Assembly: GCF_963921235.1 (NCBI RefSeq) | Contig: NC_086097.1 | Coordinates: 134,914,001 to 134,978,000, forward strand | Direction: 5' to 3' | Length of the DNA: 64,000 bases | DNA from: Mobula hypostoma | Lineage: Eukaryota | In this document: in pieces, positions 8,274 through 59,138 of the stretch | Layout of the letters: every line of letters starts with the position of its first letter | How positions within the stretch are numbered: the first letter of the stretch is position 1 | Position numbers and translations under genes: made by a program | The notes under the pieces: generated by a model | Told to the model about the DNA's origin: nothing | The model's database searches: none | What the model saw: the letters and a program-made list of their open reading frames with translations, nothing else

Positions 8274-8309
8274 AGTCGACGTTTCAGGCCGAGACCCTTC
8301 GTCAGGACT
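8274..8309 (-). ncRNA. Minimal type I hammerhead ribozyme motif (Penelope pLTR)
   Basis: Minus strand reads AGUC CUGACGA A GGG-UCUCGG-CCU GAAA C GUC GACU: stem I AGUC/GACU, complete core, GUC cleavage triplet. Confidence 0.75.
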
Positions 8310-9479
8310 AACTGAAGGAAGAGTGATTAAGGGATTTGAAAGTTGGAGGGGGAGGGGGAGATCCAAAATGATAGGAGAAGACAGGAGGGGGAGGGATGGA
8401 GCCAAGAGCTGGACAGGTAATAGGCAAAAGGGGATACGAGAGGATCATGGGACAGGAGGTCCGGGAAGAAAGACAAGGGGGGAGGACCCAGAGGATGGGC
8501 AAGAGGTATATTCAGAGGGACAGAGGGAGAAAAAGGAGAGTGAGAGAAAGAATGTGTGCATAAAAATAAGTAACAGATGTGGTACGAGGGGGAGGTGGGG
8601 CCTTAGCGGAAGTTAGAGAAGTCGATGTTCATACCATCAGGTTGGAGGCTACGCAGACGGAATATAAGGTGTATCTTTACAGTAGAGGAGGCCGTGGATA
8701 GACATGTCAGAATGGGAATGGGATGTGGAATTAAAATGTGTGGCCACTGGGAGATCCTGCTTTCTCTGGCGGACAGAGCGTAGATGTGTAAGCGGAACAA
8801 GTGCTACACATGCCCTTACACTTCCTCCTTTACCACCATTCAGGGCCCCAAACAGTCCTTCCAGGTGAGGCAACACTTCACCTGTGAGTCGACTGGGGTG
8901 ATATACTGCGTCCGGTGCTCCCGATGTGGCCTTTTATATATTGGCGAGACCCGACGCAGACTGGGAGACCGCTTTGCTGAACATCTACGCTCTGTCCGCC
9001 AGAGAAAGCAGGATCTCCCAGTGGCCACACATTTTAATTCCACATCCCATTCCCATTCTGACATGTCTATCCACGGCCTCCTCTACTGTAAAGATGAAGC
9101 CACACTCAGGTTGGAGGAACAACACCTTATATTCCGTATGGGTAGCCTCCAACCTGATGGTATGAACATCGACTTCTCTAACTTCCGCTAAGGCCCCACC
9201 TCCCCCTCGTACCCCATCTGTTACTTATTTTTATGCACACATTCTTTTTCTCACTCTCCTTTTTCTCCCTCTGTCCCTCTGAATATACCTCTTGCGCATC
9301 CTCTGGGTCCCCCCCCCCACTTGTCTTTCTTCCCGGACTCCTGTCCCATGATCCTCTCGTATCCCCTTTTGCCTATCACCTGTCCAGCTCTTGGCTCTAT
9401 CCCTCCCCCTCTTCCTACCATTTTGGATCTCCCCCTCCCCCTCCAACTTTCAAATCCCTTACTCACTCTTCCTTCAGTT

Positions 9480-9515
9480 AGTCCTGACGAAGGGTCTCGG
9501 CCTGAAATGTCGACT
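9480..9515 (+). ncRNA. Minimal hammerhead ribozyme motif, stem III variant
   Basis: AGTC CTGACGA AGGGTCTCGGCCT GAAA T GTC GACT. The C>T at a CpG breaks the ACGU palindrome. Confidence 0.6.
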
Positions 9516-12483
9516 GCACCTCTTCCTACAGATGCTGCCTGGCCTGCTGCGTTCACCAGCAACTTTGATGTGTGTTGCAAATTAATTAAAATGGAATTGG
9601 GCTCTGGCTCATCTGCTTCAGTCATTTGACAAAATGAGTTTGAATGGCATTTCGAAAATAACAAACTGAAGCCTGCAGATATCCACCTAAGAACTAATAA
9701 TGAGAAAAGATGACTCCTGTGGGAATGACATCCATAACAGTGAAATACCACAACTAACCAGCTACATTGGGCTTGTATGTGGTAAAAGCAGGAGAGCAAG
9801 CAATATGGGCCATGATTGGCTGAGACAACTACAATTCAATTGGAGATCCATCCACCATTTGCATGCCACATCGCCTGCAGTAGAGTCAACTGAAAGCAAA
9901 TTAAGAAAAGTATTGGATGACATCACCTCATTGTTCAAGGATGGCACTGGAAAACTTAAACATATAAAGGGTAAAATAGTGTTAAATGAAAATGCCACAC
10001 CCGTATTTTACAATGCCTGTCCAGTTCATTATACCATCCATAAAGTAGCCAGTGAGCTAGACCACACTGAGGCTGAAGGAATTCTTTCCACGGTTAGCCC
10101 ATGGGCAACAGTAGTGGTCCCAGAACCCAAAAAAAAATAGGCCTGTCAGGATCTGTGTTGATTTTAAGGTCACCATCAACCCAATACTGAAAGTAGATCA
10201 ATACACTCTAGCCAGGAGAGAGGATAACTTTGCAAAACTTTCTGGAAGAAAACACTTCAGCAGAGTGGACTTATTTTTGGAGTAGCACCTGCACCTCCAC
10301 TCTGTCAGAAAGCCATGGACCAGGTGCTGTAAGGTTTCCCAGGCAGTCTGGATGATGTCATTGTTACCCTTGAGGATGACAGGGAACATCTCCAAACCCC
10401 CAAGGTAGTGTTAAAGAGATTGGTAGATTATGGGCTCAGAGTACAACATGTGTGTGAATTTTTTAGACCAAGCATCACTTACTGTCATCATACCCTTGAT
10501 GCTCAAGCATTACACAAGTGTGCTGAGAGAATTCAAGCGGTGGTGGTTGCACCAAAGCCAAAGGATATGTCACAATAGCAGTGTGGTTTAGGATTTGTCA
10601 ATTACTATTACAGCTTCCTGCCAAACCTGGCTACTATGCTTTACCCCTTAAACTCATTACTACAGATGGGGAAGAAATGGCAATGGACAAAGCAGTGTGA
10701 GGTGGCTTTCAAAAAGGTAAAGGAGATGGTGACATCATTGTACTCACACATTATGATCTACATCAACCAATGTAGCTTGCCTGTGATGCCTCGCCCTACG
10801 GTAGAGGTGCGGTCATGTCACATTTTACGAGTGATGAAAGTGAATGCTCCACAGCTTTTGCATCACATTCCCTTATTGCCACAGAGAAAAATTATACACA
10901 GATCGACAGGGAGGCCTTGAGTCTGGTTCGGGTTGTAAAACGTCTTGTCTGGGAGAGAGTTTACCCTCACTACTGATCATCAACTACGAGTGTCCATTTC
11001 AAGCCGTAGATATATGTTCCACTAACAGCAGCATGAATGCAGAGATGGCCTCTCTTCCTTGGAGGACACACGGTTGAATTCAAGAGGATGAGTAATCTTG
11101 GAAAAGAAAATACCGGAAAAGTTTACAGAATATGTCCTCTTGACATATTCTCCCTAATGCAAATTGGAAGTCTCCCTATTATGGCAGAGATGACCCAAAA
11201 GGAAATCAGAAGGTATCCCAGACTGTCTCAGGTCCACACAAAATGGCTGGAATGTGCAGCAGAAATTCAGCTCCTCCATTTTTACCGGTGCCAGAGTGAA
11301 CTTAGCCTTGATGGAGGCAGCGTTATAAGGAGATTGAGAGTTGTATCATTCAGGCTGAGAGCTATATGCTGGTCATCTACGCAGGGTCAAAATGGAAGTG
11401 TTGGCTCGAAGCTTTGTCTGGTGTCCTGGGATAATCAGCAGATTAAGCAGCTCGCCATGCACTGTTTGGGATGCCAACATGTCCAAAAGATGCCAGGAGT
11501 AACACCTCTCCATCCCGAGAATGGGCTGCATTGCCCTGGAAAAGAATTCATATGGATTTTGCTGGACTATTCCTGGGCACAAATTTCTTGGTCGTAGTGG
11601 ATGCAGCTACAAAGTGGCCAGCTGTGTTGCCATTAGCCTGCACGGCAGCCTTGCGCACTGTTGATGCGTTGAGAAGCCTCTTCCCAAAGACTGGTGTTCT
11701 GAAACACTTAGTCACTGACAATGCACCACAGTTTGTTGTGAAACAGTTTCAGAAAATCCTGAAAGTGAATGGAACAAGACATACTACATCTGCACCGTAC
11801 CACTAAGCTACAAATGGTTTGGCAGAAAGATTTGTCCAGAGTCTAAAGAATGCATTGCGAGCAATGTCAGCTAAACATACTAACACGGAATCAGAAGCTT
11901 GCCAATTTCCTCCCTCAAACAAGGAGGTTTGATGTTTTACTCCTGGACAAGCAGTCCTGGCGAGAGACTACAAGAGATGATCAAAAGTGGATAACTGGAA
12001 AGATTGAGGACAGAGCTAGACCACTCTCCTAGACAGTGGAGATTATGTCTGATATCTTCTGGAGACGACCCACCGATCAGTTGAGGAGAGCAGATTCAAT
12101 CATGAGAGAAGAAAGGTGTCCAGAGCTGTCAGAACCACTTCGTCAAATCCCAGAGTCAACTCCTGCAACCACCACGGATGAGATCCCAGAACCTGAGATT
12201 GTTTCACAGCCACAAGTCTCACCCGCCAAGCAGACTGATCCCCCTTGTCAGGAAAAACATTACTCCAGCAGGGTAAGAAAGCCCCCACAGCGATTAAATC
12301 TTTAGGCCTGTATGGACAGTAAGATGACTGTACAGCAACCTGTTACAAATTTGAGTTGAGATGCACTCTGTACTGAGTCAGAAGTATAACTGAGCAGTGA
12401 GGAACGTGGTGTATTTAATATTTCAGAACTATTTGAGTAATATTGAAATATATTGTTTAATTCAGCATTCCTTATTTGTTTAA

Positions 12484-13090
12484 CATAGAACATAGAAAAG
12501 TACAGCACAGTACAGGCCCTTTGGCCCACAATGTTGTGCCGACCCTCAAACCCTGCCTCCCATATAAGCCCCCACCTTAAATTCCTCCATATACCTGTCT
12601 AGTAGTCTCTTAAACTTCACTAGTGTATCTGCCTCCACCACTGACTCAGGCAGTGCATTCCACGCACCAACCACTCTCTGAGTAAAAAACCTTCCTCTAA
12701 TATCCCCCTTGAACTTCCCACCCCTTACCTTAAAGCCATGTCCTCTTGTATTGAGCAGTGGTGCCCTGGGAAAGAGGCGCTGGCTATCCACTCTATCTAT
12801 TCCTCTTATTATCTTGTACACCTCTATCATGTCTCCTCTCATCCTCCTTCTCTCCAAAGAGTAAAGCCCTAGCTCCCTTAATCTCTGATCATAATGCATA
12901 CTTTCTAAACCAGGCAGCATCCTGGTAAATCTCCTCTGTACCCTTTCCAATGCTTCCGCATCCTTCCTATAGTGAGGCGACCAGAACTGGACACAGTACT
13001 CCAAGTGTGGCCTAACCAGAGTTTTATAGAGCTGCATCATTACATCGCGACTCTTAAACTCTATCTCTCGACTTATGAAAGCTAACACCC
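12484..13090 (-). mobile_element. 5'-truncated CR1 LINE inserted in the Gypsy 3' LTR
   Basis: Uninterrupted 184-aa ORF2 C-terminus (LYKTLVRPHLEYCVQFWSPH...FFTQRVV.AWN.LP). CATAGAA tail repeats. LTR sequence resumes at 13091. Confidence 0.92.
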
Positions 13091-13324
13091 TATAATTCAT
13101 TATGGGTTGTATGTAAGAAGTACGTGAATGGCAGACGTCATTACACCACTATGTCATATGTGTCCACCTCACCAAGAAAAATAAACTAAGTAGATGAATT
13201 ATCCGTGTTTTCCTTTTGATTTATTTCTGGAGTTACAAAACATAACTTGCAGTCTCTTGTGTCCCCTGTGTTTAATGCTTACCAGCTGACAATGATAATT
13301 TTACCTGTCACCTGTAGGTAAAGT

Positions 13325-15060
13325 CATAGAAACATAGAAACATAGAAAATAGGTGCAGGAGTAGGCCATTCGGCCCCTCGAGCCTGCACCGCCATTTATT
13401 ATGATCATGGCTGATCATCCAACTCAGAACCCAGCCTTCCCTCCATACCCCCTGACCCCTGTAGCCACAAGGGCCATATCTAACTCCCTCTTAAACATAG
13501 CCAATGAACTGGCCTCAACAGTTTGCTGTGGCAGAGAATTCCACAGATTCACCACTCTCTGTGTGAAGAAGTTTTTCCTAATCTCGGTCCTAAAAGGCTT
13601 CCCCTCTATCCTCAAACTGTGACCCCTCGTTCTGGACCTCCCCAACATCGGGAACAATCTTCCCGCATCTAGCCTGTCCAATCCCTTTAGGATCTTATAC
13701 GTTTCAATCAGATCCCCCCTCAATCTTCTAAATTCCAACGAGTACAAGCCCAGTTCATCCAGTCTTTCTTCATATGAAAGACCTGCCATCCCAGGAATCA
13801 ATCTGGTGAACCTTCTTTGTACTCCCTCTATGGCAAAGATGGCTTTCCTCAGATTAGGAGACCAAAACTGCACACAATACTCCAGGTGTGGTCTCACCAA
13901 GGCCTTGTACAACTGCAGTAGTACCTCCCTGCTCCTGTACTCGAATCCTCTCGCTATAAATGCCAGCATACCGTTCGCCTTTTTCACCGCCTGCTGTACC
14001 TGCATGCCCACTTTCAATGACTGGTGTATAATGACACCCAGGTCTCGTTGCACCTCCCCTTTTCCTAATCGGCCACCATTCAGATAATAATCTGTTTTCC
14101 TATTTTTGCCACCAAAGTGGATAACTTCACATTTATCCACATTAAATTGCATCTGCCATGAGTTTGCCCACTCACCCAACCTATCCAAGTCACCCTGCAT
14201 CCTCCTCACTGCTAACACTGCCACCCAGCTTCGTGTCATCCGCAAACTTGGAGATGCTGCATTTAATTCCCTCATCCAAGTCATTAATATATATTGTAAA
14301 CAACTGGGGTCCCAGCACTGAGCCTTGCGGTACCCCACTAGTCACCGCCTGCCATTCTGAAAAGGTCCCGTTTATTCCCACTCTTTGCTTCCTGTCTGCT
14401 AACCAATTCTCCACCCACACCAATACCTTACCCCCAATACCGTGTGCTTTAAGTTTGCACACTAATCTCCTGTGTGGGACCTTGTCAAAAGCCTTTTGAA
14501 AATCCAAATATACCACATCCACTGGTTCTCCCCTATCCACTCTACTAGTTACATCCTCAAAAAATTCTATGAGATTCGTCAGACATGATTTTCCTTTCAC
14601 AAATCCATGCTGACTTTGTCCGATGATTTCACCGCTTTCCGAATGTGCTGTTATCACATCCTTGATAACTGACTCCAGCAGTTTCCCCACCACCGACGTT
14701 AGGCTAACTGGCCTATAATTCCCCGGTTTCTCTCTCCCTCCTTTTTTAAAAAGTGGGGTTACATTAGCCACCCTCCAATCCTCAGGAACTAGTCCAGAAT
14801 CTAACGAGTTTTGAAAAATTATCACTAATGCATCCACTATTTCTTGGGCTACTTCCTTAAGCACTCTGGGATGCAGACCATCTGGCCCTGGGGATTTATC
14901 TGCCTTCAATCCCTTCAATTTACCTAACACCACTTCCCTACTAACATGTATTTCACTCAGTTCCTCCATCTCACTGGACCCTCTGTCCCTTACTATTTCT
15001 GGAAGATTATTTATGTCCTCCTTAGTGAAGACAGAACCAAAGTAATTATTCAGTTGGTCT
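13325..15060 (-). mobile_element. Young 5'-truncated CR1 LINE (RT domain and 3' UTR)
   Basis: ORFs 14190-14969 and 13424-14338 ([37 protein letters not shown]) separated by one frameshift. (CATAGAAA)3 tail. Confidence 0.95.
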
Positions 15061-15078
15061 TACATTAGTCAGAATGTA

Positions 15079-15197
15079 AGTCAGAAGTTTGTGGGTTTGA
15101 ACCCCACTCCAGAGACAGGAGTATGTAAAATCCGGCTGCCGCTGCTGAACACTGAAGGGGTACAGCACTGTCACGGGTGCCGTCCTTTGGAAAGATC
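15079..15197 (+). mobile_element. Deu-domain SINE fragment (SacSINE1/AmnSINE-like)
   Basis: AGTCAGAAGTTTGTGGGTTTGAACCCCACTCCAGAGAC...CAGCACTGTC...GGTGCCGTCCTTTGG resembles the tRNA head and Deu domain as I recall them. Not checked against a database. Confidence 0.55.
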
Positions 15198-15219
15198 AGT
15201 TACTTGTCACTATTTCAAG

Positions 15220-15948
15220 TGTAACATGCTGTAGGGTTTCACTGCTGTGTAACGTGCCATAATGTTTCACTGATAATGTAATGGTTTCTCTGCAGCAGCA
15301 ATGTTTGAGTTATGACTGGAGATAATGGGGTTTGGAATACTGTTGTTCTTTCTTGTGAGCTGGAAGAAAGATTTTTGTGGTCTTTTTGGCTGGGGAGAGA
15401 TGAGGAGAGAAGACACGAATGGAGGGAGTTGGTAGACCACTGGACGGGGTGGACTCAGGGCAAGGGTCCGAAGGGCAATGACAATCGGAGGAGGTCGATG
15501 GTGGACGAATAGTCGTACTTGTGAGCTCCAACATTGCTCAACAGACTGTTTAATAAGATTGGGCCCTTTTTTTCACTAACCATATAGTCAAAGTAAGAAT
15601 TATAAAACTTAATTATTTAATCGCAAAAAAAAGGGCCCAATCTTATTAAAAGTCTATTGCACAATGTTGGAGCTCACAAGCACGGCCATTCGTCCACCAT
15701 CGACCTCCTCCGACTGTCTGCCCTTCGGACCCTCGCCCCGAGTCCACCCCTTCCAGCAGTCTACCAACTCTTTCCATTCGTGTCTTCTCTCCCCATCTCT
15801 CCCCAGCCAAAAAGACCACGGAAATCTCTCTTCCAGCTCACAAGAAAGAACAACAGCATTTCTAACCCCATTATCTCTAGTCATAACCCAAACATTGCTG
15901 CTACAGAGAAACCATTACATTATCAGTGAAACCTTACAGCATGTTACA
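15220..15948. mobile_element. Fold-back element: inverted arms of about 325-350 bp, TGT...ACA ends, 4-bp TSD
   Basis: 15220-15572 is the reverse complement of 15625-15948. CAAG lies at 15216-15219 and 15949-15952. Confidence 0.8.
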
Positions 15949-16384
15949 CAAGTCCTTGCAGAAAATACCAGTCTCAGTTTATGCCGTTCTTGCTAAGTTC
16001 CTGAACCGATTTTGGTCACTAAGAGCAGGTGACAAATTCTTTATTACTCGCCGTGTACCATGAACAAGTTGGCAGCATATTTCCAAAGTTACAACAGAAT
16101 CAGGGAGTCATGGAATATGGAAACAAGCCAATCCGCCCATCATTTCCGCACGTCATACATATCAATAGCTCATAGAAAACTGAAAAGTATCGAACAGGAA
16201 ATGACCCTCTGGACAATGTGTTGTGCCAAGTTCATTAAAATAGTAATTGAATGCCTAACTGAACTAATCTCTTCTGCCTACACAAAGCCCATATCCCTCC
16301 ATTCCCTGCACATCCATGTGGTATCTCATTGGGCCTATCCGACACTTGTGTTTTCTTTTTAGTTTCTACACATTCCCATCTGCA

Positions 16385-16598
16385 CTCCCAACCCCCCAGA
16401 TATTCAACCATCCATCCATACGCTAGGGGCAATTTAAAGCCGTCAATCAACCTACCAACTCGCACATCTTTGGGAAACTGCAACACCCAGGGGCAACTCA
16501 TATGGTCACAGGGGGATTGTGCAAACTCCACACAAGGCCAGGATTAAGCCCACATCTCTGGAGCTGTGGGGCTGTGGCGCCATTGGCTGCACCCCTGT
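16385..16598 (-). mobile_element. V-SINE (HE1-like) copy
   Basis: Minus strand TGTGTGGAGTTTGCACAATCCCCCTGTGACC... matches the V-domain. Related copies near 17640-17820 (-), 19675-19985 (+) and 32490-32600 (+). Confidence 0.65.
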
Positions 16599-17240
16599 AC
16601 GATCAAATTATTTCACTGGTGTTAAATCTCCCTAGGCCTCAGTGAGGTACTGATCAGATGCTATAAAAATAATTGCTTGCTTCACTTCTCCCCCTGTGGT
16701 GGTAATCGAACAAGAGAAGACGGCACAGCTCCCAGCTTGCAATGGGCAGTGAATCAGATTGCTATGAAGACGATGGGTGGCACCTTCTCATGGGTGGGGG
16801 TAGATCCAGCTAACACACCTTCCAGAGGAAACAACCAGCCATTTAGGGCCATTGCCTTTACCGCCTCTGCAATTGTCAATCATTAATCCCAGTCCTTTTC
16901 TGGCCTCTACGAATTTACCCTCCAACATTGATCCAATGATCCTTGAGGAACAGAACCACACCACATTTTCTCTCTAGACACATTGACACCTTCCATTTCA
17001 GGTAACCACCACTTTATACCACTGTACATTTCTGCTTCCTTTGTTGAAGCTGTCTGCTGAAATGCTTACTGCCTTCAGAATGTTGATCAAAGGATCATCA
17101 CCTTGGCTGCCTCTTCCTGGGAACAATCTCCTTGGAGACCAGATTAGACCAGGAGGTACATAAAGCGATCCGATGGGCTCAAACAAATGGATCTAACACA
17201 GATTTAACGCTTGCATTCCCCCCCACCTCTTTTTCTGTAG

Positions 17241-17411
17241 GATCTTGAGAAAGTGCTTCAAGGAGAACTCAGTGGATGCTTAGAAAAGACACTACTGGCC
17301 ATGTTAGATTGGCCTTGCCACTTCGATGCCAAGCTGCTGAACAAAGCAATGAAAGGAGCTGGAACAGATGAAGACATCCTCATCGAGCTTCTCTGCACAA
17401 GAGCTAACTCA
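17241..17411 (+). CDS. ANXA13: Annexin A13 coding exon, 171 bp (DLEKVLQGELSG...AMKGAGTDEDILIELLCTRANS)
   Basis: ttctgtAG / GTacgt boundaries. Phase 0/0. Annexin repeat I end and repeat II start. Confidence 0.95.
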
Positions 17412-17934
17412 GTACGTTTAATCCTGAACCACATTATTTGGAGAATTAACATATTCTGACTTAATTCACTAAAAAGTGTTGTTGAAGTGTAAAGGAGATA
17501 AAGAAAGATAAAAGCTCACTTTATATGTCACAAATACATAACACAAATAATGAAATGAGTCAGTTACGTCAAATCAAATCAGCGATGTTTGTGCTGGGCA
17601 GCCCTGCAAGGGTTAGCACACTTTGGCACCAACACAGCTTGCTCACCAACTATGACCGTACATCTTTGGAATGTGGGAGGAAACAGGGGCGCCTGGTGGA
17701 AACCCACACGGTCACAGGGAGAAGGTACAAGCACCTTACAGACAGCGCTGGGAATTGCACCCCAATCTCACAGCTGGTGCCCTAATAGCGTTTCGCCAGC
17801 CGCTAAGCTACCGTGCAGCCCACTTGATTCGATTCTCCAACTTCAAAGAGCTGAAGGATTGAATCACGTGACACTGAAGAAGCCAGTTCAGCCCATCCAG
17901 CCTGTGCTGTCTCTTTAAATTGATGTGCTGACAT

Positions 17935-18742
17935 AGGAGAGGGTTCAGAAGACGTTCACGAGAATGATTTGGGGAACGAAAGAGTTACCGTATGAGGAGT
18001 GTTTGATGGCCCTGGGCCCGTATTCACTGGAATTAAGATGGGGGGGTGGGGGGGAATCTCAGTGCAATTTTTGTTGGACTGCAGATCATGGTCTCTCTTT
18101 GGGGTCTTTGCTATTGCTTGCTTGGTGGGTGGTCGTGGTGACGCTTCCTGCTGAAGTAAGTGGAGGACGGGGAGGGGCCAGGGTTGATGCTTTGCTGCTG
18201 CTTGTGAGTGTGGGAGGGGGGAGAGTGGACATTGGCATTCTAACGTTTTCCTGTCCTTCATTCTTTGGGCTTCTCTTCTGTTTTCGTGGATGTCTGCGAA
18301 GAGTAAGAATTTCAGGTTGTATACTGTACACATTCTTAGATATTAAATGGAACCATTGGACTATTGAACCTATCAAATGCTGATAGGCCAAGATGGTGTG
18401 GATGTGGAAAGGATGTTTCCTATAGTGGGGGAGTCAGACCAGATGGCACAGCCTCAGTGTAGAGGAACGTCCATTTAGAACGGAGATGAGGAGGAATTTC
18501 TTTAGCCAGAGGGTAGTGAATCTGTGGAATTTGTTGCCACAGGTGGCTGTGGAGGCCAAGTCATTGAGTGTACTTAAGGCGGAGATTGATAGGTTCTTGA
18601 TTAGTCAGGGCATGAAAGGTTACAGGGCAGAGGCTGGAGAATGGCGTTGAGAGGGAAAATGGATAAGCCACAACGAAATGGCTGAGCACATTTGATTGGC
18701 TGAATGGCTTAATTCTGCTCTTATCCCTTATGGTCTTACGGT
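17935..18742 (+). mobile_element. CR1 3' fragment interrupted by a non-coding repeat (about 18068-18368)
   Basis: RVQKTFTRMI and RNFFSQRVVNLWN motifs. The insert resembles the minus-strand repeat at 56765-56990. Confidence 0.7.
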
Positions 18743-18797
18743 TTAATACTTCTGATGAGCATATGTAGCTATTTACTCATTATAATTTGTTTTTCAG

Positions 18798-18831
18798 CAA
18801 ATCATTGCCACAAAAGAAGCATACAAACAAA
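18798..18831 (+). CDS. ANXA13: Annexin A13 34-bp micro-exon (QIIATKEAYKQ)
   Basis: tttttcAG / GTaagt boundaries. Aligns to human EIIAIKEAYQR. Needed to keep frame between the 171-bp and 80-bp exons. Absent from the ORF track. Confidence 0.92.
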
Positions 18832-20599
18832 GTAAGTACTTTTTAACAATAACTAAGTCAATTAATACTCAATCAATTAGAATAATTACTTATTACTGAA
18901 TTTATAATCATAAGAACACAAGGCTGCACAAGGTTGTGGCTAATCTTCTACCTCAGTACCACTTTGCTGTTGTATCCCTGAATCTCTTGAGTCTTTTGTA
19001 ATCAGTTTCTATTTGAATGAACTCAGTGACTGAGTGAAGAAAATTCTCCTCATCCCATTCCAAACCAGACTACTCTTTACTCTGTGCGTGACTGACCCCG
19101 GTTCTAGGCTCCTCGCTGAGGCGAAGCACACTCCCTTCATCCAGCCTGTCGTGTGCTGTAAGAATTTTCAATGAAACCTCGAGAGTAAAGTTTTTCAAGT
19201 TTTGTTCACTTTCCCTCTCATGATTCGCAGAGAAAGATGGAGACAGGTATTTGCAATATGGAGAATCAAGGGAGTTGGGGATCAGACAGAAAAGTGGAGC
19301 TGAGATCAGAGTCAGATAGACATGGCATTACTAAATAGCAGAGTTGGCTTGCATGTCCAATGACAAACTCTGTCTCCTGTTTCCTGTTCTGTGTTGTTTT
19401 CAGAAAGTGGTCTTTTCATTTTCACTTTATTTTCTGATTGCTGATGTATTTCTTGTCACATTATTCCAACTCCAATACTGTACAGGTGTAGCTGTGTCAG
19501 GGTTGGCCACAGCTTCCGGTGCAGACAGCTCCCTATCTCTTTCAGACTGCTCTTCCACTCAACAAAGGCAGACAAATTCCAGATGCTCTAAAGCTCACAT
19601 TATAATTTCCAGAAGCATCCAATTTATCCTCTCATATCCCGCTCTATAAGAATTTGCTACATCATCATTTCTTGAGATCGCCATCCCGACTTGACCTCCA
19701 GAGAGTCCACATGTTCCTGTTGATGGTGCACGGTGTGTACGTTGAAGGTTCTCCCCGTGATCGTGTTGGACTCCCCCGGAGGCTCTGCGTTCCTCCCTCA
19801 TCCCGAAGACGTGAGGGTTGGTGGGCTCCTTGGCTCCTCCAAATTACCCCTGGTGTGTATGTGAGTGTAAAATCTGCGGGGAGGGGTTCGATGGGAATGT
19901 GGAGAGAATTAAAATGGGATGACTGTGTGATTAGTGACTGATGGCCGACACAGACTTGCGGGGCCGACGGGTATGACCCCATGACACAGTAAATGTAATA
20001 ACCCAGTAAAACTTTCTTCTCCGGCCTTTCCAGAGAAAACATCTCCACCTCCTAAAACTTCTGCGATCTCCCTAATACTGTGTTTGGGAGCCATTTCAGG
20101 TGATGGAGTACAACGTAGAGCTCTGGGAAACTGGGGGGAATTTGCCTCAATTGTCTCGTATCTCACTGCATCATTCGCAGTGCAGAGCTTACTAACATTG
20201 CTGAAGAAGTAACACAAACGTGTCGCTGTTTTATTGCGAATGTATAGTACAGAGTCTCATGTCCCAGCGCTGGGAATGGTTGGTGCTTGCAGTTCTTCAA
20301 CAGACCTGCAGGTGGAGAACATTGTTCGTGGTTCGCACACTAACCCAAAAACCAGGAAGTGTCGCGCAGAGCTTTTACAGAATCGGCCAGGGCTTAATAC
20401 GTATTCAGAAAGTGACTTTAAAACTTATCTGTCTCTCTGACTAAACTTTTCATTGCTAATAGCTTCTTAAAGTGGTTTGATGTCAACATGATATCCCATA
20501 AGAGCCAAAAGACAAGTTACGACATGAGAAGTATCATATGCATGCTAATTGTGTGTGCTTGTGCATTTTATATGTATGTGAAAGTGCTTGTGTGCCTTT

Positions 20600-20624
20600 G
20601 TGTGTGTATGTGTGTGTAGTAAAG

Positions 20625-20655
<31 letters not shown>
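20600..20655. repeat. Interrupted (TG)n microsatellite
   Basis: Visible TG run. Confidence 0.9.
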
Positions 20656-20657
<2 letters not shown>

Positions 20658-20881
20658 TAAAGCATGTCTCTGTGTGTCTCATAATCATAGTATCATACAA
20701 TGTTGAAACAGGCCATTTGGCCCAACTCATTTTCAATGACCAGTCAGCATCTTCCTATATTAATCCCATCTTCCAATCTATCTTAGCATTTCATGTCTAG
20801 CAATGTAAATTTTCTTCCAGACACTTCTCAAATACTGCCAGCAGCCCAGCCTCAAACTGGGTAGACCCAAATGCACCCAAA

Positions 20882-22688: not shown

Positions 22689-23049
22689 CAACCATTCTCT
22701 CAGGCAGTGTATTCCAGCTGCACACTACTCTCTGCAAGAGGAAGACCCCCTCAGGTCCTCTCTAATCCCTTCCTCATTACTCTAGCTCTACATCTTCTAG
22801 TTTTATCTACCCCTGACATGTGAAACCTTTACTGCAGCCTACCCTCATAACTTTATATAGTTCAATTATGCCCCTCTTAATCTCCTCCACTCAAGGGAGA
22901 ACCAGTTTAGCCTTTCCAGCCTCTCCTCATAATGAATCTTCTCCATCCCAGGATGTGTGTATTGAATGTGTTTTTATGTGTGTGCTTTTGAGTAAGCAGA
23001 TGTGTATACATTTTATATATGTGTGTGTGTCTATGTAGGTGTGCTTTAA

Positions 23050-23231
23050 GGTTGCTACATATTGCTTTGGTTTACTCTCCTGGCATTACACAAGTCCCTA
23101 TGTACAAGATCTTTCTCTCCTACACACGTTCAAGCAGATGTGCGTGTTTCTGTGTGAGAGAGGAATAAAAAGGGTTTGACCGAGATACATGTGTGATGCC
23201 AGGAGAGTAACCTAAAGCAATATACAGCACC
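23050..23231. repeat. Imperfect hairpin or MITE-like inverted repeat
   Basis: ATATTGCTTTGGTTTACTCTCCTGGCATTACACA pairs with TGTGTGATGCCAGGAGAGTAACCTAAAGCAATAT. Confidence 0.7.
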
Positions 23232-29661: not shown

Positions 29662-29763
29662 GTAAATAAAGCTTCTGTTTGACATAACTAAACCTCAAAA
29701 CCATGCAAGAACAAAAAGTTGCACTTTGCAATAACTTTTGAAACCAAAAATTTCTGTTTGCAG

Positions 29764-35826: not shown

Positions 35827-37374
35827 TATATGGCTGGGAAGGGGAGAGCTGATAGTAATACAAGATGGGATTATTGTAGATTGGTACATGATGGCTAGCA
35901 TAGACATGATATGCTGAAGGGCCAGTTCCATGTTGTATAACGCTATATTGCTCTCAGACACTATGAAGCTTTGACGAGTTAGCATCAGACGCATTGCATC
36001 ACTTGCAGACTTGTATTCACAGCACATATTTGTACAATGTGGTCGTTGACATAAATGATGCATTTCACTCTATGTTTTGATGTACATGTGACAAATAAAT
36101 GTGATCTTTCATCTTTAAGCTCAGTGGGTAGACCTGTTGAGCTAATAGGATGTTCTTAAGCTCTTCATTTCACATAAATTTTCATAATAATAGCAAATGC
36201 CAATGGACAAAGTGTCTAATGGAAGTGTGAACTGGTAAGGTGCAGAGAAGGGTAATAATTCTAACACTTGGGGATTGGTAAAAGAGTAGATATTGAGGGA
36301 GAGGATGCAATAGATTGCTCTGATCTTCGGATGTAAATGTGCTAGAAGATTGACAGAATTCCCTTGGTGAAAGCTGCTGTTCCACCACCTGCACCATCTC
36401 TCAAGGAATCTTTGGGATTTATTGCAGGAAATTGGCTAGGCTCCTCCTGGAACTGCAGACAGATATGTTTTAGTAGAAAATTTACTGGATCATTCACTAG
36501 TGGAACAACGACCAGTTGAAGGTGCTGAAAGGCGTCAGTGGATCAGTAGGTAGCATTCCATCTTCTGAGCCCCAAGATCATGAATTTACTCCTGGGGTTC
36601 CACACTTCTTCATGTAGTCTGTGAGTTCTCTCTCTTTTGGTGCCTCCCTTTCAGCCGTTAAAGGGTGCAAGAAAGCTTTATGAGGACGCTACTGGGAATG
36701 GATGGTTTGAGTAAAAGGAGAGACTAGATGAGCTGTGGCTTTTTACCCTTGAGTGTGGAAGGAGGGTGACCTTAAGGAGGCTGAGAAGGTGGATAGTCAT
36801 ATTCTTTTCAGGGTACAGGAGGGCATATGTTTAAGATGAGGGGAGAAAGATTTAAAGGGACTCTGAGAGGCAACTTCAGATGGTGGGAGGTACATTAATG
36901 GAATGAGCTGCCAGAGGAAGTGGTTGAGGCAGCTATAATAACAACATTTCAAAGACATTTGGATAAGTACCGTTTATGGATAAGAAAAGTTTAGAGGAAT
37001 ATGGATCAAACACTGGCAAATGGGATTAGCTCTGGCAGCTTTGCCAGCATTCACATATTGGACTGTTTCTATTCCATATAACTCCAAGACTCTATGCGTC
37101 TATTTCCGTGGTGTGTGCCTCTCCCCCCCACCTCCCCCTCAGGCGTTCTCAAGACTCCATTTTCCCTCTGGGCTCTCCAACCATTCTCTCAGTCTCTCCT
37201 AGGGCTGGATGCCTGCCCACCCAGTCTCAGACCCCTGATTCACCTATTCTGCAGCAGCCCCTGTTCACCAAGCCAATTCTTCATTGTTGTCTATCCATAG
37301 AAACATTTCACCCCCTTGCATATCAAGAACCTGTCTACCTCAGTGTTAAAAATACTCAAAAACTCTGTTCCGTC

Positions 37375-38235
37375 AATGCAAGAACCTTTCCCACCTTGTG
37401 GCATAGTGTGAAGTCAACAAGCTCTTCGATGTTAGCAAAAAGAAGCAGCCGGTTATTGACGTCAGGAAGAGGGGAGAAGCACACACCCCTCTTTGTGTTA
37501 GTGGTGCTGAGGTGCAGATGGCTGAGGGCTTCAAGTTCCTTGGTGTAAGTATCACCAACAATTTCAGCCATGTAGATTCTACACCTAAGAAAGCATGCCA
37601 GCACCTCTATTTCCTCAGAAGGCTAAGGAAAATTTCATGTCCCTGATGACTCTCACCAATTTTCACAGATGCACCTTTGAAAGCATCCTATTCGGGTGCA
37701 TCACAATTTGGTGAGGCAACTGCTTTGCCCAAGATCACCAAGAAATTTCAGAGAGTTGTGAACACAGCCCAGCCTATCATACAAACTAGCCTCCCCTCCA
37801 TTGACTTTGCCTCCTCTTCCAGCTGCCTAGTGAAAGCAGTAACATAATCCTGGAGCACCCCACCCACCTACCCTGATCATGCCCTCCCTTCCCCTGTCTT
37901 GTCAGACAATAGGTATAAAAGTTTGGGAGCACATAGAAACAGGCTCAGGAACACCTTCTAACTCATTGTTCTTAGACTCCTGAACAGACTTCTCATAGGG
38001 TAAAAGATGAACTCGTAATCTCCTGAGCAACCTTGCACTTTGTCAACCTGCATGGCACTCTCTCTGTAACTGCAACTCTACTGTATAAGATAGTAAAAAT
38101 AAAACAGATGTATATTCTGCGTTCTGTTTCATTGCTACTACCTTGCTGGTGATTATGCATGCACTGATCCATCTGGATTGCATGCAAAGCAAAAACTTTT
38201 CACTATATCTTGGTAATGTGACAATAATAAGCCAA
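37375..38235 (+). mobile_element. Decayed Rex1/Babar 3' fragment
   Basis: ELVVDFR-like, FKFLG and ESIL.GCIT.W.G remnants. 3' end TGTGACAATAATAA. Similar ends near 38640, 46220-46710 and 63320-63700 (-). Confidence 0.65.
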
Positions 38236-39152
38236 TACCAATCATCATCTTCTCAAACTGGTTCTGCCATTTAGAAGAATCCATCATTGATATGTTGCAT
38301 ATTTACAACTCTTGTTCATTTGATTTCCTAAATGTACATTCTTTTGCCAGGTACCTTCTAAGATAAACTACCATCTGTCATTTCCACTGGACATCTTCCA
38401 TCCCCATGTTATCAGACTCCTGAATGGACATTTCAAATTCTAAAAGACGAAGTCTTAATCTCCTGATCTACCTGGCTCTAGCCATCGCATTTTATTTGTC
38501 TCCCTGCACTACATTTTCTCTGTAACTGTAACATTATATTCTGCATTCTGTTTTCCTTTAACAACCTTGATGTACTTATGGGTGGAATGACCTGCCTGGA
38601 TGACACACAGACAAAAGTTTTCCACTGTATCTTGGTTCATGTGACAATAATAAACGAATACCAGTACTGTTGAGGATAATAATTACTAAAACTCACAACC
38701 TCTGGAGAGAAATAAACTCATCCCTGCTCTTGACTTCCTTAGATAACTCCTTTAGTTTTAAACAGCAACCCCCTAATACTCGATTCTTCTATGTGAGGAA
38801 ATAGCCTCTCCACACCACCCTCGATACCAGGGCCCTCATCTTGTAACTTGTGCAGTCCAGTGCACCCAGTCCCGAAGAAAGGGCTCGGCCTAAAACGTCA
38901 ACTGTTTATTCATTTCCATAGATGCTGCCTGACCTGCTGAGTTCCTCCAGCATCTTGTGTGTGTAATCTTGTTTCCCAGAAATGAACATGCCAAATTACG
39001 TTTGCAATTAAATGTTTAATTATTATTAAGTTTTTGAATTATTCTTTTTCTACAGTATTTTTCTGTCTTCTCTTCTAACTTTTCAAATCCATCCTGTGAC
39101 TTGCGTAGAGCCCGTTCACCCACACTCGGCTTACTTTAATTTCCTTATGCAG

Positions 39153-39265
39153 TTCAGTGCACCAAGGACTGCCAAGCCTATTTTGCAGAAGTGTTACATG
39201 AAGCAATGAAAGGTACGGGGACGGACGAGGACACGCTGATTCGCATCCTGGTCTCACGCTCAGAG
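39153..39265 (+). CDS. ANXA13: Annexin A13 coding exon, 113 bp ([38 protein letters not shown])
   Basis: tatgcAG / GTaaaa boundaries. Phase 1/0. Repeat IV. The C..DC..YFAE pattern matches ANXA13. Confidence 0.95.
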
Positions 39266-39555
39266 GTAAAATGGAATTCAAACTTGGCTTTTTGGGTCTG
39301 GTTTCCAATCAGGTTGGACGGGGGGGGGGGCACGGGGAATGATTGGCAGCACTCTGAAAGTAAAGTGCTCATGGGTGGAGTCAATTCTAACCCCAGACAA
39401 CACCCAACCAGTCCGGTAGCATCTCTGAGAAATAGTCAGGTATGAGACACCTCATTGGAACAGAGAAAAAGAGGAATCATGTTTAAAGCAAGTGGAGGAC
39501 TTTGATGGCACAGTAGTGCAGTGTCAAGTCACTGCTTCATAGCTCCAGCACTTCA

Positions 39556-40255
39556 GTAGGACCAAACAGAGTAGGTCTTACACAGTGAATGGTAGAGCAC
39601 TGAAGCTTGCTGTGGAACAAGAGGATCTGGGAATACAGGTCCATAATTCACTGGAAATGACATCACAGGTGGATAGAGTTGTGAAGCTTTTGACACATTA
39701 GCCTTCATAAATCAAAGTAATGAATACAGGAAATGGGATGTTATGTTGAAGTTGTATATGACATTGGTGAGGCATAATTTGGAGTATCGTATGCAGTTTT
39801 GGTCACCTACCTACAGGAAAGATGTTTACAAGTTTGAAAGTGTGCAGGAAAAATTGACAAGGAAAGATTGAATAAGCTAAGACTTTATTCCTTGGCACAT
39901 TAAAGATTGAAAGGAGATTTGATGGAGGTATGTAAAATTATGAGGGGTATGCTTAGGATAAATGCAGGCAGGCTTTTTCCACTAAGGTTGGGTGGGTCTA
40001 CAATTGGAGGTCATGGATTAAGGGTAAAAGGTGAAAAATTTCAGGGAACATGAGGGGAAACTTCATTCAGAGGGTCATGAGAGTGTGGAATGAGCTGCCA
40101 GTACAAGTGGTGCATGCAAGCTCGATTGCAACATTTAAGAGAACTTTGGAAAGGTACATGGATGGTTGGGGGTGGGAAGAGCAGTTTAAATGGTTCTGCA
40201 TGGATTAGATGGGCTGAAGGGCCTATTTCTGAGCTGTACTTTTCTATGACTCTAT
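39556..40255 (+). mobile_element. Decayed CR1 3' fragment
   Basis: LYMTLVRHNLEYRMQFWSP-like remnant and CR1 3' UTR GGGCTGAAGGGCCT...TTTCTATGACTCTATG. Confidence 0.75.
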
Positions 40256-41062
40256 GATCAAGGTTCAGTGCTGGTCTTGAGTGCTGTCTTGTGTGCATGT
40301 TCACCCTGTGACTATGAATGGGTTTCCTCCAGGTGCTCACTTATCCCAAAGACCTGTCAAGTAGTAGATTGCCCCTTGGGTGCATAATAGTACTTAATGG
40401 TCAGCATGGACATGATGGGCTGAAGGGCCTGTTTCCACTTTGTATGACTCTATTATTCTATGACATACTGTGATGGTTAGTATGACAACTAATGCCCTCC
40501 TCACTCCTCCAAAACTTTCCATAATCTCTCATGCAATTTCCACTTACCTGGTAGAAAACAGCTCAAGCGACACTGGAGAAACTCCACACCATCCAGAAGA
40601 AATCAACTCACTTGACAAAGACCACCAACTCCACCCTAAACACTCCATTCATTATTGTGGCTGCATTGTGTACCGTCTACATGGTACATTGCAGTTTCTT
40701 TGTGAGCGGAAACTTTAATCTCTACCAATGGACATAGGACACCACAACCTGCAGGTCCCCCCCCCGCCCACAAGACACACGCCATCACTACATTGTCACT
40801 GGGTCTACATCATGGAGATCCCTTCCCAACAGCTCCGTGGAATCACTTTCAGCAGAAGGACTGAAGCGATTTAAGAAAGTGGCAAGTTGGATGGGTACTA
40901 AATGTTAACCTCACCCGTGACAACTGCAACCTATGAATGAAACACACACATCAGCCCCCTCTGCCCTCCCCAAACCACAGTGATGCCCATCTACATAAAA
41001 GTGATAGGTTTAGCTGATTCCCATACTGTAAGAAAGATGACCTGTACTTCTCTATTCAACAG

Positions 41063-41206
41063 GTTGATCTTCCGAACATTAAGGAGAGGTATCAGGAGAT
41101 GTACAAGAAGCCTTTGGCTGATGACATCAAATCGGAGACCTCTGGGCATTTCCAGAAAGTTCTGCTGGCCTTAGTAAAAGAAGAAAATGGGACAGTTGGA
41201 ATATAA
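41063..41206 (+). CDS. ANXA13: Annexin A13 last coding exon (VDLPNIKERYQEMYKKPLADDIKSETSGHFQKVLLALVKEENGTVGI*)
   Basis: tcaacAG acceptor, phase 0. TAA at 41204-41206. Confidence 0.93.
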   Translation, partial: VDLPNIKERYQEMYKKPLADDIKSETSGHFQKVLLALVKEENGTVGI

Positions 41207-43166: not shown

Positions 43167-43390
43167 ACACGAGGAAATCTGCAGATGCTGGAAATTCAAG
43201 CAACACACACAAAAAGTGCTGCTGAACGCAGCAGGCCAGGCTGCATCTATAGGAAGAGGTACAGTCAAGGTTTTGGGCCGAGACCCTTCGTCAGGACGAA
43301 GGAAGGTCTTGGCCCGAAACGTCAACTGTACCTCTTCCTATGGATGCGGCCTGGCCTGCCGCGTTCACCAGCATTTTTGTGTGTGTGTTA
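43167..43390. mobile_element. Mini Penelope fold-back insertion in a CR1 3' end
   Basis: Near-complete palindrome at 43202-43389. TSD ATTCATACTGA at 43156-43166 and 43392-43402. Confidence 0.85.
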
Positions 43391-43402
43391 TATTCATACT
43401 GA

Positions 43403-47400: not shown

Positions 47401-47539
47401 CCCTTCATCTCCTTTTCCCTTCCACAGGAAGTTAACCAAACCAGGACCCAATGCGCAACGTTTTCCCAGTACTATCCCGGGCTCAGCTCCCGCTGCTGAT
47501 TCGATCTCATGGGTTTTGCCCACTCGTTGGGGTAGATTT

Positions 47540-48130
47540 AGCACAGTGTGAGAATCTATAGAGTACCACAGCCCAGAAACAGGCCCTTCTGTCCAGCCAG
47601 TCTCTGTTGAACTATTTATCTGCCTAGTCCCATCCACCCAGACCTGGACCATAACTGTCCATATCCCACCTATATATGTACCTACCCAAATTTCAGGTGC
47701 AAAATTTGCAGGTTTAAATACTGAAATCAAACCTGCATCCTCTACTTTCACTGGCAGCCCACCATCCTCTGAGTGAAGGAGTTTCCCCTCAGGTTCCCCT
47801 TATATATTTCGCCTTCCAGCCTTAACCTAAGATCTCTTGTTCTAGTCTCACCCACCTCAGTGGAAAAAGCCTGCTTGCAGTTACTCTGTCTATACCCCTC
47901 ATAATTTTGCATACCTCTACCAAATCAGTCCTCATTCTTCTACGCTCCAGGGAATGAAGTCCTGACCCATTCAACCTTTCCCTGTAACTCAAGTCCTCAA
48001 TTCCCAGAAACATCCTTGTTGATATCTTTCCAGCAGGTAGGTAAGCAGAGCAGCGAATGAGACTCTAAATCAGGCCTCGTCAACATCTTATATAACTTCA
48101 ACATAACACCCCATCTCCTGTACTCAATGC
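47540..48130 (-). mobile_element. Decayed CR1 3' fragment
   Basis: LSYRERLNGSGLHSLERRRMRTDL motif. Confidence 0.75.
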
Positions 48131-48466
48131 CTCTGGCACTCCAGCAGAGGTGCCTCCATTCGGATGAGATTATTTAAAGGGATAACATTCAAGATGCTTC
48201 CAGAGCCATGGAGTAATACAACACGGAAACAGGACCTTTGACCTAGTCTGACCGTGCTAACCAAGATCCCGTTCTAAACTAGTCCCGTTTACTCATGTTT
48301 GGTCCATGTTCCTCAAATGCTTCAGTGGTCTGACCCTTTCCTGTGCATGTACATCCAAACGCATTTTGTTTGTTTAATGGTACCCAGCCCTCCCAGATTA
48401 CCTGGTAGCTTGTTCCATAAATGCAGCACCCTCTTGCCCCCTAAATCCCTTTGAAACTTTGCATCC

Positions 48467-48868
48467 CACACAAAATGCTGGAGGAACTCAGCCGGCCAGG
48501 CAGCATCTATGGAAAAGAGTAGAGTCGACGTTTCAGGCCGAGACCCTTCATCAGGGACTGGAAAGAAGATGAGAAGTCAGAGAAAGAGGGTGGGGGGAGG
48601 GGAGGAAGAAGTACAAAGTGACAGGTGATCAGGGAAGCCAGGAGAGGGGTAAGGGGTGAAGTAAAGAGCCTGGAAGTTGGTTGGAGAAAGAGATAAAGGG
48701 CTGGAGAAGGGGGAGATCTGATAGGAGAGGGGAGAAGAACATGGAAGAAAAGGAAGGAGGAAGAGCACCAGAGGGCGGTGATAGGCAGGTAAGGAAATAA
48801 TATGAGATAGGGAAATGGGAATGGGGAATGGTGAATTGGGGGGCAATTACTGGAAGTTCGGGGAAAAA
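48467..48868 (-). mobile_element. Penelope pLTR fragment with hammerhead motif at 48523-48559
   Basis: Minus strand AGTCC CTGATGA AGGGTCTCGGCCT GAAA C GTC GACT. Pyrimidine-rich pLTR body like 9190-9575. Confidence 0.8.

Positions 48869-59133: not shown

Positions 59134-59138
<5 letters not shown>

Follow-up and report, generated by a model that had tools for sequence, protein, structure and literature searches.

Annexin A13 introns of the ray Mobula hypostoma contain likely inert minimal type I hammerheads within the 3' pseudo-LTRs of truncated Penelope-like elements

Minimal hammerhead ribozymes (min-HHRs) in the pseudo-LTRs (pLTRs) of metazoan Penelope-like elements (PLEs) have already been described (Cervera & de la Peña 2014, PMC4209133). 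In the accessible text of that report, single min-HHRs show no cleavage and dimers cleave at low levels. The hammerheads found here in a 64-kb window of the ray genome (the whole stretch of DNA analyzed) resemble those min-HHRs in the loopless ACGU stem III, a stem I of 4-5 bp, an extra base between positions 9 and 10.1, the pLTR location, the predominance of dispersed truncated copies and the occurrence of opposite-strand pairs 100-700 bp apart; a G10.1-C11.1 pair, present in part of the family, may be a further common trait. Stem II differs, having 2-4 bp in the ray compared to 7-8 bp in Schistosoma, and the young ray subfamily carries U at position 11.1. The accessible text of PMC4209133 does not mention cartilaginous fish. 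A literature search, with subscription papers and supplements outside its scope, found no earlier statement on shark or ray hammerheads in introns.

Judged from sequence, the ray element resembles EN+ PLEs of the Neptune/Nematis type as outlined in the available part of Craig et al. 2021 (PMC8557442), with a C-terminal GIY-YIG endonuclease (EN), a CX2-5CxxC linker finger and 5' truncation. Inverted truncated copies at the 5' end and single-end tails of 30-40 bp are further common features. Unlike the elements described there, the window contains neither a full-length copy nor a partial tandem, and ray targets are AT-rich or mixed with clear 11-16 bp duplications rather than microsatellites. 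PAc Poseidon of Anolis (Frangieh et al. 2024, PMC11167929, accessible sections) shares the hammerhead near the 3' end of inserts, two reverse transcription start sites that define an optional tail, but it belongs to a different clade, the linker finger being present in the ray element. Cutting by the PAc hammerhead depended on protein, and RNA-seq gave no reads ending at its cut site; activity with protein assistance has been demonstrated for PAc, the ray family being described here by sequence. Non-LTR retrozymes also carry type I hammerheads from PLE pLTRs and are reported, in the accessible part of bioRxiv 10.64898/2026.07.22.740005, in the single chondrichthyan sampled; one of nine Xenopus retrozyme dimers cleaved. 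Those retrozymes form head-to-tail tandem arrays, whereas none of the 21 ray matches is in tandem, all being single or head-to-head.

The ray repeat corresponds to the 3' pLTR of a PLE that encodes a GIY-YIG endonuclease. A sequence-only reading had placed minimal type I hammerheads in Penelope pLTRs, and this is borne out by GIY-YIG and reverse transcriptase (RT) remnants in the same inserts, as well as by the features matching the accessible text of PMC4209133. The C-terminal part of the element ORF (8784..9191, +; stop 9189-9191) starts with a C-x4-C-xx-C linker finger, which fits the CX2-5CxxC form common to Neptune and Nematis according to the available part of PMC8557442. Pfam PF01541 matches at 8784-9188 with 24.5 bits (cut-off 22.6; E 3.4e-5). 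The endonuclease has 74-95% identity to ray proteins, one of them with RT and EN in one chain, and no matches in the PDB. A 3' UTR/pLTR segment of 79% pyrimidine (9192..9479, +) spans the 288 nt from the ORF stop to the hammerhead at 9480. By itself the RT remnant at 26648-26992 yields no Pfam match, but 39 proteins match it at E<=1e-10; RVT_1 is present in several of them and GIY-YIG in one. The RT and EN segments come from separate copies in the window, and both match single chains (e.g., P0023, P0046, P0052). Among four sequencing runs compared as contigs, three of them labelled RNA by guess only, contigs matching 8981-9600 number 46,739 of 20.9 million in run X4 and 6,303-8,764 in the three others. 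No positions at which many molecules start or stop were flagged in these runs, a result that, coming from contigs, carries no weight for or against cleavage.

The hammerhead pattern CTGANGAA-N8-16-GAAANGTCGACT has four exact matches in the window, at 8274-8305 (-), 9484-9515 (+), 27687-27718 (+) and 48523-48554 (-), and zero matches in any of 100 dinucleotide shuffles of the window. A profile built from eight clear copies finds 21 matches to this one repeat end and none in the reversed window; ten are additional to the sequence-only reading (6786, 27013, 31116, 31147, 31804, 32038, 32678, 33052, 44510 and 59066). All 11 core bases, with the triplet GUC, are present in four of the 21 matches, namely 8274(-), 9480(+), 27683(+) and 48523(-), and the other 17 are not full. 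The complete cores reported earlier at 8274-8309 (-), 27683-27718 (+) and 48523-48559 (-) are confirmed by pattern and core scoring. The copy at 9480-9515 had been classed as variant or broken; its core is intact at all 11 positions, and the change lies at position 15.2 (C>U). The palindromic ACGU at 15.2-16.2, read earlier as a stem III without a loop, is indeed loopless and occurs in 8274, 27139, 27683 and 48523. Both 8274 and 27683 allow a cross-paired dimer of 5+5+4 bp to be drawn. The window hammerheads have an extra A between positions 9 and 10.1, and the 10.1-11.1 pair is G-C in 27683 and G-U in 8274, 9480 and 48523. At 9503, among the best 40 of 141 variant rows, family contigs carry C in 74% of depth in X4 and 18% in X1. 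A covariance-model search, proposed earlier as a check, returned six unrelated Rfam matches at E<=1 in the window and no hammerhead, so the Rfam hammerhead models miss the loopless form. A GUYRAC palindrome across the cut site was rejected as a general feature by a metagenome pattern scan (122 matches at 120 loci), in which the ten matches with a stem I of at least 4 bp plus stem II all represent another family with U2.1, C17 and A1.1; nine of the metagenome loci have weak profile matches (E 0.0007-0.009) and one a GIY-YIG match.

The copies are spread over two host genes and the region in between. An annexin A13-like gene (4689..41206, +) has nine mapped coding exons at about 4689-4784, 17241-17411, 18798-18830, 24104-24184, 29600-29661, 29760-29865, 31430-31502, 39152-39265 and 41063-41206, with the stop codon at 41206; residues 1-30 were not found in the 64-kb window. 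One annexin exon used as a PDB query gave annexin VI as the top match on account of its eight repeats; this result played no part in naming the gene. Downstream lies a BTB-BACK-Kelch gene (51870..62815, +), a candidate KLHL38, which is a neighbour of ANXA13 in vertebrates. Copies had been proposed to lie inside the ANXA13 pre-mRNA, which holds for 13 of the 21 matches (6786 to 38987, in introns of the plus-strand annexin gene) but not for those at 43k, 44k and 48k, after the stop codon, or at 55k-60k in the BTB-Kelch gene. Eight intronic matches are on the sense strand and two of these, 9480 and 27683, have a full core.

Five inverted inserts are head-to-head pairs. Insert A (8177..9575, both strands), a pair of 5'-truncated copies, consists of a long-tail left arm (8177-8785, -) and a short-tail right arm (8786-9575, +) between target-site duplications of 16 bp (8161-8176 and 9576-9591). 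Its left arm carries the full-core hammerhead 8274..8309 (-), which is antisense to the annexin gene, has an ACGU stem III and a scissile bond predicted between 8278 and 8277. The right arm carries the sense intronic hammerhead 9480..9515 (+) with a full core, in which C15.2>U at 9508 turns ACGU into AUGU; among the best 40 of 141 variant rows, family contigs have C at 9508 in 74-96% of depth. Insert B (26994..27234), a pLTR pair with a long-tail arm (26994-27112, -) and a short-tail arm (27113-27234, +), is flanked by 13-bp duplications (26981-26993 and 27235-27247) and includes the sense hammerhead 27139..27174 (+), which carries C3>U as noted earlier. This insert splits an older copy (26648..27780, +) between its RT remnant (26648-26992) and its linker remnant; an internal deletion in the older copy reaches a hammerhead at 27683..27718 (+) and its short tail. 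That hammerhead has a full core, a perfect ACGU, a stem II of 2 bp and a predicted scissile bond at 27714|27715, and it is the only sense intronic copy with a full core and perfect ACGU that lacks its own antisense arm.

The remaining copies are mostly degraded, in line with the variant or broken state reported for those near 38870, 43260-43330, 55525 and 60355-60390. The sense intronic copy 38866..38964 (+) carries U4>C, G12>A and G1.1>A. Insert C (43167..43391), 3' of the annexin stop codon, has two broken hammerheads and an exact 11-bp target duplication, and insert D (55403..55599), inside the BTB-Kelch gene, has broken cores and a 13-bp duplication with one mismatch. G12>A occurs in six of the 21 matches, including 43178(-) and 55515(+). 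A single 5'-truncated copy (60295..60987, -) retains an endonuclease C-terminal remnant, 3' UTR, hammerhead and short tail, the hammerhead at 60355-60390 having A6>C. Between the two genes, the copy at 48467..48559 (-) combines a full core with an additional C that separates stem I (AGUC) from C3 (in CUGA), which leaves just 1 bp of stem I to stack on the core in the dimer register. Insert E (31125..31267), a short pair with a short-tail arm (-) and a long-tail arm (+), has no hammerhead core. Its target duplication is not above chance (9 of 150 controls reached its score) and was not counted, while the duplications of 16, 13 and 11 bp (exact) and of 13 bp (one mismatch) outscore all 150 random controls, giving four of five inserts with duplications above chance.

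The 36-nt hammerhead is a conserved island between subfamilies, and within subfamilies its core decays like its neighbours. Among the best 24 of about 1,700 rows, loose ends of aligned contigs pile up at 9480 (359, 68 and 49 contigs in X4, X1 and X3) and at 9516 (311, 61 and 31), with other pile-ups at 9045, 9088, 9093 and 9413. Pile-ups at the exact hammerhead borders indicate that alignment of other subfamilies is confined to the ribozyme. Inside subfamilies, changes in the core versus the tail number 2/58 versus 18/312 (p 0.75) and 10/72 versus 42/471 (p 0.20), a comparison of low power covering 16 of the 21 matches; 48441 (insertion-shifted), the old copies 31804, 32038, 32678 and 33052, and the junction columns of 43286 were excluded. 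Pooling all 21 matches, which are not independent copies, the core is better kept than 60 downstream columns (19/180 versus 202/1107, p 0.01), and we read this advantage as subfamily divergence. A core better conserved than the adjoining pLTR bases, which the sequence-only reading had made decisive, is thus not found for genomic copies within subfamilies. Conservation between but not within subfamilies argues that selection acts on active elements and not on the window copies.

Within the annexin A13 introns, these minimal type I hammerheads in the 3' pLTR of 5'-truncated GIY-YIG Penelope-like copies are very probably inert passengers. In an active tandem element, two hammerheads would cross-pair their ACGU palindromes and stem I strands and cut after GUC, probably aided by the element's own protein, and selection on source elements would keep the 36-nt module. 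Reverse transcription would begin 65 or about 100 nt 3' of the cut, which would leave all or part of the hammerhead in nearly all truncated inserts. Inserted copies would then decay neutrally, often through CpG change at G12. The intronic hammerheads are most likely inert because pairable copies are mutated or predicted to be locked with their own mirror image. Sense copies of head-to-head inserts in the annexin pre-mRNA are predicted to fold onto their own antisense arm, 9480 base-for-base with 8309-8274 and the 3' half of 27139 (27160-27174) with 27112-27098 at a predicted probability of 0.99-1.0. The free copy 27683 would be without a usable partner in this pre-mRNA. However, 27683 belongs to an older copy and still has 11/11 core bases and a perfect ACGU, which counts against the inert-passenger reading.

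Nearest-neighbour folding was rejected as an absolute activity test, since even the ideal 8274 homodimer is placed 19.8 kcal/mol above the cofold minimum. The energy model gives hammerheads too little stability, and therefore only context differences count, at an equilibrium that takes no account of proteins or kinetics. Opening the 9-nt cleavage region is predicted to cost 25.0 kcal/mol for 27139, 23.2 for 9480 and about 6 for 27683, compared to a median of 3.7 and a maximum of 7.7 kcal/mol for 40 random intronic 9-mers.

The low opening cost at 27683, its full core with ACGU and its 5+5+4 bp homodimer would be compatible with a low rate of cutting of this free copy by a second molecule, with help from a Penelope protein. 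The partner could be a further nascent annexin transcript or one of the numerous RNAs of this very abundant family, and a PLE hammerhead was protein-assisted in vitro in the accessible sections of PMC11167929. Nevertheless, such cutting in trans is improbable: stem II is weak (2 bp), local pairing competes, min-HHR dimers are of low activity in the accessible text of PMC4209133, the element protein would be required in the same cell and, judging by the accessible literature, a slow intronic cut is unlikely to alter mRNA output.

Cutting within a single annexin transcript is unlikely under the folding model. The sequence-only reading had sense intronic copies pair and cut within one ANXA13 transcript, and an effect of such a double hammerhead on annexin A13 expression appears very improbable. 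With 27683 as the enzyme, 27139 or 9480 can be drawn as the substrate with a 5-bp stem I and a 4-bp stem III; 27139 lies in the same intron, 544 nt upstream, and C3>U leaves its GUC site untouched. Yet both candidate sites are predicted to be buried in long duplexes by antisense arms transcribed first, and 9480 is separated from 27683 by 18 kb and three exons. In context, imposing the 27139 x 27683 double hammerhead on the fold is predicted to cost about 105 kcal/mol, compared to 26 once the antisense arm is left out. The copy at 38870 has a broken core and, with 27683 as the enzyme, no stem I pair (0 bp) adjoining the core, and 27683, left without a free partner, has a 2-bp stem II and a GAAACG predicted to be paired elsewhere (0.96-0.97). 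According to the summary in PMC2995048, splicing survived intronic hammerhead cleavage in vivo.

It is highly improbable that the conserved element is a 3' splice site instead of or besides a ribozyme, with the stem I AG (YAG|UCC) after a pyrimidine tract making sense copies cryptic acceptors: pyrimidines reach 77-86% upstream of the AG in seven of eight examined copies, the D. virilis Penelope intron ends at the 5' end of helix I (accessible text of PMC4209133) and two joints exclusive to runs labelled by guess as RNA end at 9480/9481, but the entire 3' UTR is 79% pyrimidine, the joints amount to one contig per run with no GT..AG register and one on a TCCA microhomology, and the conservation of GAAAC-GUC-GACU would be left unexplained.

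Alongside the inert-passenger reading, insert geometry might inform on integration, which the available part of PMC8557442 lists as unresolved for PLEs. Counted from the hammerhead start, insert ends lie at +96 and at about +133 to +139. Each of the five head-to-head inserts pairs a long-tail arm with a short-tail arm, the arms are each other's closest relatives in three of three young inserts, and the short-tail arm extends further 5' in three of five, the other two being ambiguous. A possible origin, which we tentatively suggest although the odds are against it, is twin priming in which a dimeric Penelope protein acts on one RNA. Two target strands would prime at two start sites about 40 nt apart, leaving one long-tail and one short-tail arm per insert, and the short-tail arm, copied before its partner, would therefore reach further 5'. 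A single fold-back does not account for insert A, in which the long tail is missing from the arm that has the extra ORF piece. No earlier statement on twin priming in PLEs was found in the literature, subscription papers and supplements being outside the search.

As found, the hammerheads matter little, with dispersed copies in the thousands falling into introns by chance. Intronic copies may be tolerated because head-to-head integration silences a sense hammerhead through the antisense arm it adds, and because G12 is lost by CpG decay. Any comparison of sense and antisense copies across the genome must therefore score free copies only. Trans cleavage of host transcripts, if it took place, would let a very abundant repeat affect host RNA genome-wide, but nothing here suggests so. 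The arm geometry of inverted inserts provides a countable test of Penelope integration and, if twin priming is true, thousands of ray inserts would permit PLE integration to be tested by counting.

The hammerhead ribozymes in the window are real and their class assignment is right. All the sites picked out by the sequence-only reading were found in place, as was the loopless stem III, reduced to ACGU. The pattern CTGANGAA-N8-16-GAAANGTCGACT matches exactly four times, at 8274 (-), 9484 (+), 27687 (+) and 48523 (-), with no match in 100 shuffles. A profile trained on eight clear copies gave 21 matches in the window versus none in the reversed window, and all 11 core positions (CUGANGA plus GAAA) are intact in four of the 21. 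No Rfam model caught these motifs in our scan. The copy starting at 9480 had been described as variant or broken, but it carries a full core with the single change C15.2>U. This change is private to the copy, as C accounts for 74-96% of family-contig depth at the position. The complete cores proposed for 48523 and 27683 hold up, although an extra C disrupts the stem I register of the former and stem II of the latter has just 2 bp. An old copy at 31804-31891 (+) has the cut site GUU followed by AAC in place of GUC followed by GAC, does not preserve the 5' stem I strand and perhaps belongs to an older subfamily.

The Penelope-like origin of these hammerheads is borne out by a GIY-YIG open reading frame (ORF), a reverse-transcriptase remnant, head-to-head inserts and target duplications. 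The ORF piece at 8784-9191 encodes, besides a C-x4-C-xx-C finger, a GIY-YIG domain exceeding the Pfam cut-off, and ends 288 nt upstream of the 9480 hammerhead. The finger in the linker points to a Neptune or Nematis type. A search with the reverse-transcriptase remnant (26648-26992) recovers 39 relatives at E<=1e-10; database proteins such as P0023 combine this segment and the endonuclease in a single chain. The remnant is part of an older copy ending in the 27683 hammerhead. The locus at 26648-27780 is nested, with a young head-to-head pLTR pair inserted in the reverse-transcriptase region of the older copy of the same family. In that older copy, an internal deletion joins the ORF linker directly to the hammerhead, and two comparable joints occur among sequencing-run contigs. 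The family is very large: a 620-bp piece is covered by 46,739 of 20.9 million contigs in one run and by 6,303 to 8,764 contigs in three further runs. Four annotated ray or skate host-protein isoforms (P0023, P0027, P0034 and P0056) carry Penelope reverse-transcriptase or endonuclease pieces, which would be exonised copies or annotation errors.

Five inserts (A, 8177-9575; B, 26994-27234; C, 43167-43391; D, 55403-55599; E, 31125-31267) are head-to-head pairs whose 3' ends both point outward. Target duplications of 16, 13, 11 and 13 bp flank four of them, each scoring over all 150 random controls, a level not reached by the fifth. Head-to-head pairs, target duplications and tails are described marks of endonuclease-bearing Penelope-like elements in the available text of PMC8557442 and PMC3846280. 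In each insert one arm runs to about +96 and its partner to about +133 to +139, counted from the first hammerhead base, so that a long-tail and a short-tail arm are paired, exactly one each, in 5/5. The chance of this is about 0.03 if two RNAs pick start sites independently and evenly. In each of the three youngest inserts the two arms are mutually best matches (107/110, 70/71 and 79/92), which does not hold for inserts D and E. In A, B and E it is the short-tail arm that has the greater 5' reach, with C and D ambiguous. A single fold-back event, proposed in PMC3846280 to account for palindromic junctions, does not fit insert A. Two primings on one RNA, one at each of the two start sites, would explain the tail pairing, the arm kinship and the 5' reach of the short-tail arm. 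With five inserts, this suggests a lead only. Such a model is in line with the predicted dimer and the extension on both strands in accessible sections of PMC11167929. A tail at one end is already described; our literature search on twin priming in Penelope-like elements found no statement of the two-priming mechanism.

The host gene is annexin A13-like. One exon is identical in 44/44 residues to the mobulid-ray protein P0007, which maps with few substitutions elsewhere to nine + strand exons that span 4689 to a stop at 41206; its residues 1-30 found no counterpart in the window. Downstream, from 51870, lies a BTB-BACK-Kelch gene, presumably KLHL38. The proposed location within ANXA13 introns applies to 13 of the 21 matches (8 sense, 5 antisense), whereas the other 8 lie beyond the annexin stop or within the Kelch gene. 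Two ATTAAA hexamers lie upstream of insert C. At 9478-9483 and equivalents, the AG in the 5' strand of stem I sits behind a pyrimidine tract and resembles a 3' splice site; pyrimidines abound throughout the UTR, and sequencing-run contigs showed no in-register spliced joint there.

Other repeats share the window. Insert A landed within broken ORFs at 7458-12305, which we take to resemble a Ty3/Gypsy-type LTR retrotransposon; one tested piece had no Pfam match. Interrupted ORFs at 34437-35621, broken by another repeat, presumably resemble a Tc1-type transposase, the single tested piece again lacking a Pfam match. LINE reverse-transcriptase remnants at 12546-15059 (-; RVT_1 at 14193-15056) and 57015-58324 (+) are about 80% alike in opposite orientation. 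Neither a 1.6-kb palindrome in an annexin intron (20952-22585; arms 80-96% complementary, 36-bp tandem units near the centre) nor a 700-bp inverted repeat (15246-15950; arms 91% complementary, with a chance match to Rfam MIR7996) contains a hammerhead-like core.

The window hammerheads are of a kind already known, to which they add one more member. The portions of PMC4209133 seen define minimal hammerheads carried by the pLTRs of Xena, Poseidon and Neptune elements from fish, count thousands in coelacanth and in Xenopus, and describe opposite-strand pairs 100-700 bp apart. Eight metagenome contigs (L019, L024, L031, L033, L061, L083, L084 and L088) hold a separate minimal family with a 7-bp stem II, and those of L019 and L088 form close opposite-strand pairs with the same layout as the window inserts. 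Regarding activity, PMC4209133 in the same portions reports no cleavage for monomers and low cleavage for dimers. In the accessible PMC11167929 text, cleavage occurs solely when protein is present, RNA-seq reads do not end at the cleavage site, and transposition in vitro does not need cleavage. In the available bioRxiv text (10.64898/2026.07.22.740005), retrozymes occur in one chondrichthyan and are depleted from Xenopus introns, and 1/9 dimers cleaved.

A double hammerhead requires one copy with a full core, acting as enzyme, and another, acting as substrate, in which GACU follows GUC. Among the 8 sense intronic matches only 9480 and 27683 have the full core, and folding leaves 27683, whose stem II has 2 bp and which faces competition from local pairing, as the sole remaining candidate. 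A cut in trans involving 27683 is conceivable but improbable. The sequence-only proposal that sense intronic copies pair in cis and cut the annexin pre-mRNA fares worse still and is very unlikely, because folding predictions bury the substrates in antisense-arm duplexes. Insert A has the 9480 copy in its right arm, and the predicted fold pairs that copy base for base with 8309-8274. Lying 544 nt from 27683, the 27139 copy would be its natural substrate but for antisense pairing: its 3' half is predicted to pair with 27112-27098 (probability 0.99-1.0; hairpin z -21.9). In both inserts A and B, the antisense arm is transcribed before the sense hammerhead. Opening the 9-nt site would cost 23.2 kcal/mol at 9480 and 25.0 at 27139, whereas 40 random intronic 9-mers have a median cost of 3.7 and the costliest of them reaches 7.7. 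The forced 27139 x 27683 structure is predicted at about 105 kcal/mol in context versus 26 without the antisense arm. As an isolated ideal homodimer already lies 19.8 kcal/mol over its folding minimum, about 80 kcal/mol would be attributable to the arm. The copy at 38870 is predicted to be accessible, yet has no stem I pairs adjoining the core and lies three exons off. Splicing survives a cut by an intronic hammerhead according to the summary in PMC2995048.

Conservation differs between and within subfamilies. Contigs of other subfamilies lose alignment at 9480, the first hammerhead base, and at 9516, the base past its last (X4, 359/311; X1, 68/61; X3, 49/31, by sequencing run). Among the 40 listed of 141 variant rows, none falls in CUGANGA or GAAA. 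Pooling the 21 window matches, 19/180 core positions are off-majority versus 202/1107 downstream (p 0.01). These comparisons argue that the hammerhead is under selection between subfamilies. The expectation that the core is better kept than its neighbours fails within subfamilies (2/58 vs 18/312, p 0.75; 10/72 vs 42/471, p 0.20), in small tests using 16 of the 21 matches. G12 is A in six matches, the change that CpG decay within CCCGAAA should produce. The simple reading is that source elements are selected for the hammerhead and inserted copies decay neutrally.
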